NCBI GenBank assembly: GCA_038203825.1
Contig: JBBRDO010000002.1
Location: forward strand, 34,617 to 98,616
Direction of reading: 5' to 3'
Length of the DNA: 64,000 nucleotides
Origin: Chloroflexia bacterium
Lineage (GTDB): Bacteria; Chloroflexota; Chloroflexia; QHBQ01; JADMIH01
Shown here: positions 25,476 through 25,742 of the stretch, in pieces
Layout of the letters: the number at the start of each line of letters is the position of its first letter
Position numbering within the stretch: position 1 is the stretch's first letter
Notes under the pieces: model-generated
The model's input: the letters and a program-made list of their open reading frames with translations, nothing else
Told to the model about the DNA's origin: nothing
Databases searched by the model: none
Position numbers and translations under genes: made by a program

Positions 25476-25742
25476 TTAGCTCCAGTTTACGCTATCCGCG
25501 GGCACGCCCGGTCGGCTCCAGTTTACACTGTCAGCCATAATATGCGTGACCGCGCTCCAGTTTACGCTGTCTGCGGGCACGCCCGGGCGGCTCCAGTTTA
25601 CACTGTCCGCTGCGGTATGATTAGCTGCGCTCCAGTTGACGCTATCAGCCGGGTGGCTAGCACCCATACCGATCGCAAGTGTAGCAAGAACCCCAAGCCC
25701 CACCAGTCCATATCGAGCATAGTTTAGTGCGCGTTTGATCAT
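25476..25742 (-). CDS. Secreted multi-core peptide precursor (signal peptide plus 5 x ADSVNWS)
   Basis: GGAGGAG RBS; basic N-terminus and hydrophobic core; five ADSVNWS copies with only synonymous differences; last core ends at the stop codon. Confidence 0.85.
   Translation of the reverse strand: MIKRALNYARYGLVGLGVLATLAIGMGASHPADSVNWSAANHTAADSVNWSRPGVPADSVNWSAVTHIMADSVNWSRPGVPADSVNWS
25479..25649 (-). repeat. Five 21-bp coding repeats separated by 15/18-bp linkers
   Basis: Repeats at 25479-99, 25515-35, 25554-74, 25590-610 and 25629-49; linkers AANHTA, RPGVP, AVTHIM, RPGVP. Confidence 0.95.

Follow-up and report, generated by a model that had tools for sequence, protein, structure and literature searches.

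The window analysed here is a 64,000-nucleotide stretch of DNA from an uncultured soil Chloroflexia bacterium and forms part of contig C2 in a genome of 4.86 Mb, with 58% G+C, that is 90% complete. On its minus strand, at 25476..25742, lies a small gene for a protein of 88 amino acid residues, in which the heptapeptide ADSVNWS is repeated five times behind a signal-like N-terminus. In a preliminary description, made from the letters of the window, this protein was taken for the precursor of a secreted peptide pheromone or of a ribosomally synthesised and post-translationally modified peptide (RiPP). Here, we describe this gene, how far it is conserved and how it is transcribed in relatives. 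We also show that it shares a motif with the C-terminal tails of secreted S8 subtilases across Chloroflexota, that such tails are restricted to S8 enzymes, and that the small gene and the S8 gene tend to occur in the same genomes. Compared genomes carry G-labels, and the genome of the window is G000 (89.96% complete).

The SVNW-repeat gene and its family

The coding sequence is identified by its open reading frame (ORF), by its homologues and by RNA contigs of relatives. It runs from the ATG at 25742 to the stop codon at 25476-25478, and a Shine-Dalgarno sequence, GGAGGAG (25746..25752, minus strand), is located 3 nt 5' of the ATG. This site is kept as GGAGGAG or GAGGGA in all six aligned upstream regions. 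The coordinates, length and ribosome-binding site given in the preliminary description were right; the strand, which it left unstated, is minus.

The protein can be described as composed of two parts. The first, residues 1-29 (25656..25742, minus strand), reads as a signal sequence and consists of MIKRALNYARY, the hydrophobic segment GLVGLGVLATLAIGMGA and a serine. It has a charged n-region (K3, R4, R10) and, by eye, a hydrophobic stretch of 17 residues at 12-28. This layout is identical in all aligned relatives, and the protein would be exported by the Sec pathway. The motifs WRR or WRK of a Tat signal, found in some relatives and in some S8 subtilases, are absent from the window protein, and a lipoprotein is ruled out, as the protein has no cysteine. 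The second part, residues 32-88 (25479..25649, minus strand), comprises five exact ADSVNWS units that begin at residues 32, 45, 57, 70 and 82, at spacings of 13, 12, 13 and 12 residues, and that are joined, in order, by the linkers AANHTA, RPGVP, AVTHIM and RPGVP. The protein terminates on the fifth unit, right at the stop codon. The translation thus bears out the units, linkers and end that had been reported before.

Tandem Repeats Finder describes the region as a repeat with a period of 75 nt, 2.2 copies and a score of 231. Within the unit, four of the 21 nucleotide columns are variable, each at a third codon position, and the pairwise differences among the five units are synonymous in 24 of 24 cases. 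A repeat at the DNA level, or a non-gene, is ruled out by these synonymous-only substitutions, the conserved orthologues, the ribosome-binding site and the RNA contigs. An ORF on the opposite strand (25371..25727, plus strand, 118 residues), although longer than the gene, is a shadow ORF. The reading of NWS as an N-glycosylation sequon was also rejected, since relatives carry NWG, NWN and NWA.

The window protein matched no Pfam family at E up to 10 and no NCBIfam family. In the AlphaFold2 model there is a helix at residues 2-28, and almost every residue from 29 to 88 scores below 50 in the predicted local distance difference test (pLDDT); the mature protein is probably intrinsically disordered. 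A search of the ESM Atlas was uninformative, with a top score of 0.89 to unnamed secreted proteins of actinobacteria.

The small protein has homologues in 12 published genomes, all from the genus of the window, and the small relatives in this genus span 63-165 residues and 4-18 units. The 25 small members compared have 63-152 residues and 4-18 units, and all of them end exactly one residue past the last tryptophan; the CVNW variant of G027 is the exception to this rule. The tetrapeptide SVNW is invariant in all 25, and its flanks, spacers and copy number vary. In an alignment of 12 sequences, hardly any column is invariant apart from those of S, V, N and W in the units. Distances from one tryptophan to the next are 5, 7, 8, 10-14 and 18 residues across the family, the commonest arrangement being 5+8 or 12/13, which gives a super-period of 13. 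The codons of the motif are mixed: among 169 SVNW motifs from 16 family genes, valine is written GTC 96 times, GTG 51 times and GTA 21 times, and asparagine AAC 100 times and AAT 69 times. Because the differences between units are all synonymous and the SVNW codons of the family are mixed, selection acts on the peptide, as the preliminary description had gathered from the synonymous differences. The conservation of the core that it looked for in homologues holds for SVNW, which is kept across the genus, and fails for the A and D of ADSVNWS, which are already replaced in relatives at 74-94% identity. The flanks of the units are homogenised inside a gene and differ between genes. The conserved unit is therefore SVNW plus one small residue, hereafter SVNWx, and not ADSVNWS. 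An invariant SVNW in variable flanks, spacings and copy numbers argues for independent short motifs rather than for a fixed fold.

Database searches with the small protein found few others of its kind. A HMMER scan of 1.84 billion representatives gave 21 proteins at E up to 0.001, among which, the query aside, eight are genuine members of the small family and the others are large repeat proteins or low-complexity matches. A word-based search gave three proteins only. Taken together, the data support a real, selected and expressed small gene family for a probably exported repeat-unit protein.

Three other kinds of repeat came up in these comparisons. A gene of G027, a relative from another genus (L024, contig C5, 7426-8160, minus strand), has CVNWNG units with a period of 15-16 residues and AEQPPVVAD spacers; it does not end on a unit, and it is divergent to a regulator with STAND, tetratricopeptide repeat (TPR) and HTH_3 domains. 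Large secreted proteins of other organisms (P0004, with 2809 residues, P0008, P0017, P0018 and P0019) carry up to 77 [IV]NW repeats at a strict 13-residue period, with 72 of 76 spacings equal to 13 in P0004. No Pfam family explains them, and they may form a structural repeat family so far undescribed. The pro-region of lysostaphin (PDB 6rk4_A), a secreted protein with 13-residue tandem repeats, matched the 5+8 units of an 18-unit relative with a phmmer E of 1e-7. Homology was rejected here: only V, N and KA recur in the periodic match, tryptophan takes no part in it, and the likeness is best read as that of two 13-residue repeats by chance.

SVNWx tails of S8 subtilases

A six-frame translation of the whole genome contains 34 occurrences of SVNW, of which five are in the window ORF, three in one S8 protease and 26 are single. 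The window ORF and the S8 gene, on contig C49, are the only ORFs with at least three. The C49 protein is a pre-pro S8 subtilase ending in ...DSVNWSSVNWSSVNWSSADWGSDYWSR. Its sole Pfam match is Peptidase_S8, at residues 165-439, and it aligns with the invariant family residues D174, H212, N313 and S403. By its sequence it is a member of a group that we call the SVNWx-tailed S8 subtilases, defined as a Peptidase_S8 domain followed by at least three x[VI][ND]Wx units. In an AlphaFold2 model made from a 30-sequence alignment, the catalytic domain is confident, with a mean pLDDT of 77.6, and the tail, residues 481-521, is below 50. The window protein has SVNW units and no S8 domain, so that it has a motif, and not a family, in common with the protease. 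Chloroflexi S8 subtilases with tryptophan repeats of SVNW type, mentioned in the preliminary description, are real, both in this genome and across the phylum.

Orthologues of the C49 protease are found in 16 of the 26 genomes of the genus, three unpublished genomes counted. All 15 C-termini examined consist of 3-6 contiguous SVNW[SGN] pentapeptides followed by an end like SDYWGQ. In a database search with the tail, 53 of 53 matches were S8 proteins. When longer proteins were searched with a small protein of 18 units, 118 of the 120 listed matches carried PF00082; of the 117 S8 proteins that have a run, 110 bear it at the C-terminus, and the run reaches 17 or more x[VI][ND]Wx units. Many of these tails carry a precomputed match to PF01469. 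The names on these matches include Chloroflexia, Anaerolineae, Anaerolineales, Caldilineaceae and Ardenticatenaceae. Some S8 tails finish in spaced SVNWG units with basic or proline spacers, in the manner of the small proteins.

When 301 genomes of the class were sampled, 24 of them, from 4 of 94 genera, had matches, and those outside the genus of the window lie in ORFs of S8 size. Small proteins were seen in the one genus, to which G027, from a second genus where the tail is already present, adds its CVNW variant. Since its matches are near-exclusively S8 proteins and are spread across the phylum, the tail is of old origin and S8-specific, and the small proteins seem to have been derived from it at the level of the genus.

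Among the 23 published genomes of the genus, ten have both genes, eight have neither, two have the small gene only and three the S8 gene only; related genomes are not independent in these counts. G015 was counted under both genes on the N-terminal part of an S8 that its contig holds. The genomes with the small gene only are 62% and 71% complete, and those with the S8 gene only are 77-85% complete. When published genomes about 90% complete or more are considered, counting G000, eight have both genes and one, G004, has neither.

Two further features of the tailed S8 proteins were seen. Motifs like S[VLT]NW occur in the n-region, before the hydrophobic core, of P0036, P0037, P0043, P0047, P0048, P0052, P0071 and P0074; P0074 has three FSVNWQFKR copies there, and in the small proteins this position is taken by LNY or AWRK. 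These motifs fit no reading given below. In P0066, P0067, P0076 and P0157, the SVNWx tail is followed by about 40 acidic residues and an LPxxT-like end (FLPLVTR, YLPTITR or YLPSINR), which may be a separate sorting signal.

Transcript, control region and neighbourhood

RNA evidence comes from four metatranscriptome runs of three studies, whose contigs, from relatives, are 90-95% identical to 25388..25939. Such contigs tell where a transcript is present and where it ends, but neither its strand nor its level, and DNA carry-over is possible. A contig of 500 nt covers 25479-25939, and one of 590 nt, with one additional unit, covers 25429-25939. The contigs of three runs stop at 25932-25939, just 3' of a promoter-like site; in one of these runs, 10 further letters are followed by adapter. 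At the other end, a contig of a relative stops at 25388, at a hairpin, with AAA and then adapter. In the close relatives, the contigs thus outline a separate, well covered transcript of some 560 nt between the promoter-like site and the hairpin, and the intergenic flanks are uncovered on both sides. In the contigs of a relative, 11 of the 13 tabulated differences in the coding sequence are synonymous and the other two fall within a spacer; 24 further differences lie outside the table. The preliminary description had allowed for a gene that is never transcribed, and the RNA contigs of relatives cover it.

The hairpin is the terminator that had been placed after the last unit. It is composed of GGGAGGCCC-AGAC-GGGACCUCCC, followed by UUUGUCGUU (25385..25416, minus strand, from RNA folding). 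The hairpin proper occupies 25394-25416, with z = -3.7 for a 104-nt stretch, and UUUGUCGUU comes next on the coding strand. A consensus terminator scan gave no terminator-like site and left this hairpin uncalled. The RNA contigs end there, in agreement with the earlier assignment.

The promoter-like site (25964..25991, minus strand) consists of TTCTCA, a spacer of 16 nt and TATACT, with TG before the second hexamer, and is kept in the upstream regions of the four closest orthologues. Upstream of the -35 hexamer is the palindrome TACGTAAAATTACGTA (26031..26046, minus strand), a possible operator that is kept in G000, G015, G013 and G017. The upstream alignment also shows a second palindrome of putative function, GTAGTACTTTCGGACTAC, in the 5' leader (25907..25924, minus strand), and a related element, GTACTTT..CTA (25993-26015, minus strand). 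In four orthologues the promoter is flanked by palindromes of the types TACGTA-N4-TACGTA and GTAGTAC..GACTAC, and such flanking palindromes are possible operators of some regulator. The leader of about 207 nt contains no riboswitch or other known RNA, the only Rfam match being a tRNA.

That tRNA, a tRNA-Ala(GGC) at 25231..25304 on the minus strand (tRNA and Rfam scans), has its own promoter-like site at 25339-25367 and is the conserved downstream neighbour, being 3' of the SVNW gene also in G015, G007, G009, G019 and G023. On the other side, the gene of the window (locus A) is divergent from a GT4 glycosyltransferase gene, which is followed by tsaE, tsaB, rimI and tsaD, these four assigned by position and ORF length. 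This side is also found in G015, G013, G017 and one further metagenome-assembled genome. Further neighbours within 10 kb include an aldehyde dehydrogenase, a Trypco1 gene, a CHAT-SBP_bac_5 gene and a permease.

The CHAT-SBP_bac_5 gene (19141..22632, minus strand) encodes a protein of 1163 residues that is composed of an N-terminal CHAT protease, one membrane span and a C-terminal SBP_bac_5 domain, and it is preceded by the Trypco1 gene (22655..23098, minus strand). The layout is receptor-like, with a peptide binder outside and a caspase-like protease inside. As a candidate receptor, this protein, 3 kb from the SVNW gene, was set aside, being conserved only in the closest relative, G015.

A scan of neighbour domains within 10 kb of the window gene found no receptor, regulator, kinase, protease or RiPP tailoring enzyme. 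Tailoring genes (radical-SAM, P450, MNIO, cyclase and other) are absent within this distance, in line with the modifying enzyme that had already been reported missing, and are absent as well from the scanned related loci. No Opp system lies beside the gene, and no TPR receptor of the Rap, NprR, PlcR, Rgg or AimR type adjoins it in the window. In several variants of locus A, a PAS histidine kinase is found 2-4 kb off.

Other genomes have a second locus, B, which is absent from the genome of the window. Here a paralogue with 16-18 SVNW units adjoins, or is one gene away from, a regulator of 830-869 residues composed of a STAND NTPase, TPR and LuxR domains, HTH_3 taking the place of LuxR in G027. 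A regulator-linked SVNW gene is present in eight related genomes: G003, G005, G007, G009, G019, G022 (unpublished), another metagenome-assembled genome and G027, which is from another family and has the CVNW variant. This adjacency is weak evidence, because the STAND-TPR-LuxR family (about 860 residues) has at least 20 paralogues in the genome of the window, spread over many contigs. The search for kinases, S8 proteases and RRNPP regulators next to the gene, suggested beforehand, thus returned none within 10 kb, and gave this weak link elsewhere. One locus-B regulator, P0078, has LNTGP-type pentapeptides in a linker. P0077, a gene of about 298 codons between the regulator and the SVNW gene at locus B, has no Pfam match; the ESM Atlas places it in 'hypothetical/YndJ-like' clusters only, and it is absent from the genome of the window.

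Readings of the SVNWx motif

The mature part of the small protein consists only of SVNWx units and short variable spacers. We propose, with a probability of roughly 0.4, that the protein duplicates the S8 tail in free-standing, disordered form, and that the S8 protease recognises it and probably cleaves it behind tryptophan. SVNWx would be a short linear motif, whose most likely reader is the S8 catalytic domain: S-V-N-W would occupy subsites P4-P1, with a small residue at P1', and cleavage after tryptophan would yield five or more short peptides, all ending in ...SVNW. The S8 enzyme would trim its own tail likewise, and the peptide products may serve in signalling, as decoys or in regulating the protease. 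A reader tied to S8 enzymology is suggested by the invariance of SVNW in a variable context, spacing and copy number, by the predicted disorder and by the near-exclusive association with S8 proteins. General wall-binding modules occur on many enzyme classes and the SVNWx array does not. The synonymous differences, the occurrence of both genes in the same genomes, the discrete transcript and the parallel with tandem Phr propeptides also count in favour of this proposal.

Several observations weigh against cleavage by the S8 enzyme. The S8 gene is unlinked, on another contig, among genes for endonuclease V, DUF2227, NUDIX, an SMC-like ATPase and GGDEF proteins, and its neighbourhood has no conserved partner. 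The contiguous x[VI][ND]Wx units of the tails, up to 17 or more, resemble the pentapeptide-repeat consensus; since many tails are PF01469-like, the tail is perhaps a folded or binding module and not a substrate. A structural constraint is hinted at by the 13-residue super-period, which the small proteins have in common with the large [IV]NW-repeat proteins, to which they are unrelated. Eight of 45 full-length S8 pre-sequences have S[VLT]NW before the signal core, beyond the reach of an extracellular protease. Finally, tailed S8 proteins occur in four genera of the class and small proteins in one genus plus the G027 variant; as the tail is the more widespread of the two, it functions without the small protein. 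The pentapeptide likeness, the super-period and the n-region motifs keep a binding or structural role alive.

A role as a multivalent binding module is possible, and we regard it as nearly as likely as that of an S8 substrate. SVNWx would bind a conserved component of the envelope or matrix, for example a wall glycan, with tryptophan as a platform and asparagine and serine as hydrogen-bond donors. The tail would anchor or target the protease, and the intact small protein would be an adaptor, coat or competitor that places it. An intact structural surface protein had been named in the preliminary description as an outcome against its own reading, and this role would be of that kind. In single-membrane bacteria, repeats at the C-terminus of a secreted enzyme usually serve to anchor it, the SVNWx array is at the extreme C-terminus in 110 of 117 S8 proteins, the lack of variation in the motif throughout genus and phylum is what a conserved ligand would lead one to expect, and a variable copy number would tune avidity. 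Good expression of the small proteins was also counted in favour of this role, the RNA contigs giving presence and not level. However, the array sits almost only on S8 peptidases (118 of 120 listed matches), unlike SLH, LysM and choline-binding modules, an unfolded unit of 4-5 residues is poorly suited to binding glycans, AlphaFold2 shows no structure, and no candidate receptor turned up.

Signalling can be considered in two forms. The first, which we find doubtful, is a protease-fused or split pheromone system: the S8 enzymes would carry SVNWx cargo, the genus would have added strongly expressed cargo-only genes, and peptides ending in SVNW, released by active protease, would inform the population of extracellular proteolysis through TPR-containing STAND-LuxR regulators. 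We know of no bacterial counterpart that has been described. The second, more doubtful again, is a strict precursor for cell-cell signalling, in which the released SVNW peptides, presumably matured to 5-8-mers, would be pheromones sensed by a TPR regulator or a kinase. The signal-like N-terminus followed by repeated cores up to the C-terminus, the paralogues near a STAND-TPR regulator (LuxR or HTH_3) in eight genomes, the PAS kinase of some locus-A variants and the conserved promoter palindromes, which suggest dedicated control, are consistent with such a precursor. The window gene, however, has no receptor, kinase or Opp system beside it; adjacency comes cheap with at least 20 regulator paralogues per genome; the core lacks pherotype-like divergence; and the motif is also found on proteases of distant classes that have no small gene. 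The pheromone or RiPP identity first given to the protein is therefore retained in part: the gene for a probably exported multi-unit protein stands and has gained a link to S8 enzymes, and the invariant core and the missing receptor, kinase and RiPP enzyme speak against the rest.

In Bacillus, Phr peptides are matured by the S8 enzymes subtilisin, Epr and Vpr. Tandem Phr propeptides are the closest described system to the window gene. In the account of these that we draw on, tandemly duplicated propeptides yield several pheromones, released by extracellular proteases, and the Phr of Rap-Phr (RRNPPA) systems in Bacillus and its phages is a small exported propeptide with several copies of a short peptide, as the window protein would be (PMC11343458). 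Phr propeptides have 2-3 copies and SVNW proteins 5-18, and the SVNW motif is also fused to the protease itself, unlike in Phr. Phr genes adjoin a Rap receptor and diverge in specificity, whereas the window gene has no adjacent receptor and its core is invariant; on these two grounds it is not a member of the Phr family. No divergence of the mature peptide between lineages was found, SVNW being the same in the 25 small members and in S8 tails of other classes, and such invariance across genus and phylum is the opposite of the pherotype divergence of Phr, PapR and AimP.

The precursors of yeast alpha-factor and of multi-core peptides of fungi and plants have a signal peptide and identical, spaced cores, and are processed by S8 enzymes of the kexin or subtilase type. 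The window protein is alike in having repeated identical cores with spacers behind a signal-like N-terminus. The alpha-factor type is eukaryotic and uses dibasic Kex2 sites, whereas the SVNW protein has no dibasic site and would be cut at tryptophan.

A self-assembling structural repeat is unlikely. Here the units would form a solenoid, fibre or amyloid-like polymer with ladders of tryptophan and asparagine, into which the S8 tails would co-assemble; long and short chaplins, which co-assemble, would be the counterpart of tail and small protein. The 13-residue super-period (5+8 or 12/13) is that of the large secreted [IV]NW proteins such as P0004, and the arrays reach the C-terminus uncapped. 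The pentapeptide-repeat consensus is A(D/N)LXX (Pfam PF00805, PF01469), and x[VI][ND]Wx resembles it: the S8 tails have the same contiguous five-residue pattern of a hydrophobic residue, D or N, and a large hydrophobic residue, with tryptophan in place of leucine or phenylalanine. The window protein differs from pentapeptide-repeat proteins in having no Pfam match and units 12-13 residues apart, and, unlike for these proteins, no beta-helix is predicted by AlphaFold2 for the S8 tail or the small protein. Spacings of 10, 11, 14 and 18 residues in relatives, an AlphaFold2 confidence below 50 and the mere five units of the window protein argue against assembly.

Very unlikely is a RiPP precursor, whose tryptophan or asparagine would be enzymatically modified before or after export: its multi-core layout recalls the borosins and plant burpitides of other classes, in which the same repeated core is fused to an enzyme at the C-terminus and found in a separate repeat-only precursor, but those enzymes modify the core chemically, whereas the SVNW units are paired with a protease and give no sign of being modified, no tailoring gene is in reach, a Sec-type signal stands in place of a leader, and the residue after tryptophan is unconserved.

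Full-text literature searches, which covered papers without their supplementary files, found no paper on the SVNW motif or on a tryptophan-repeat S8 tail. An exported protein with multiple copies of a peptide or repeat is of a known kind; what is new here is the fusion of these same units to a protease family. Small secreted proteins made only of repeats are routinely missed or called hypothetical. Chloroflexota are a major soil phylum, and we know of nothing on their peptide-based extracellular biology. The four-residue motif, the phylum-wide, undescribed S8 tail and the genus-specific, expressed tail-only gene are objects that can be tested. If the S8 enzyme cuts the motif, a protease would be coupled to peptide release in a new way; if the motif binds the envelope, it would be a new anchoring device. 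With either outcome, hundreds of S8 peptidases whose only name at present is 'AprX' would gain an annotation.

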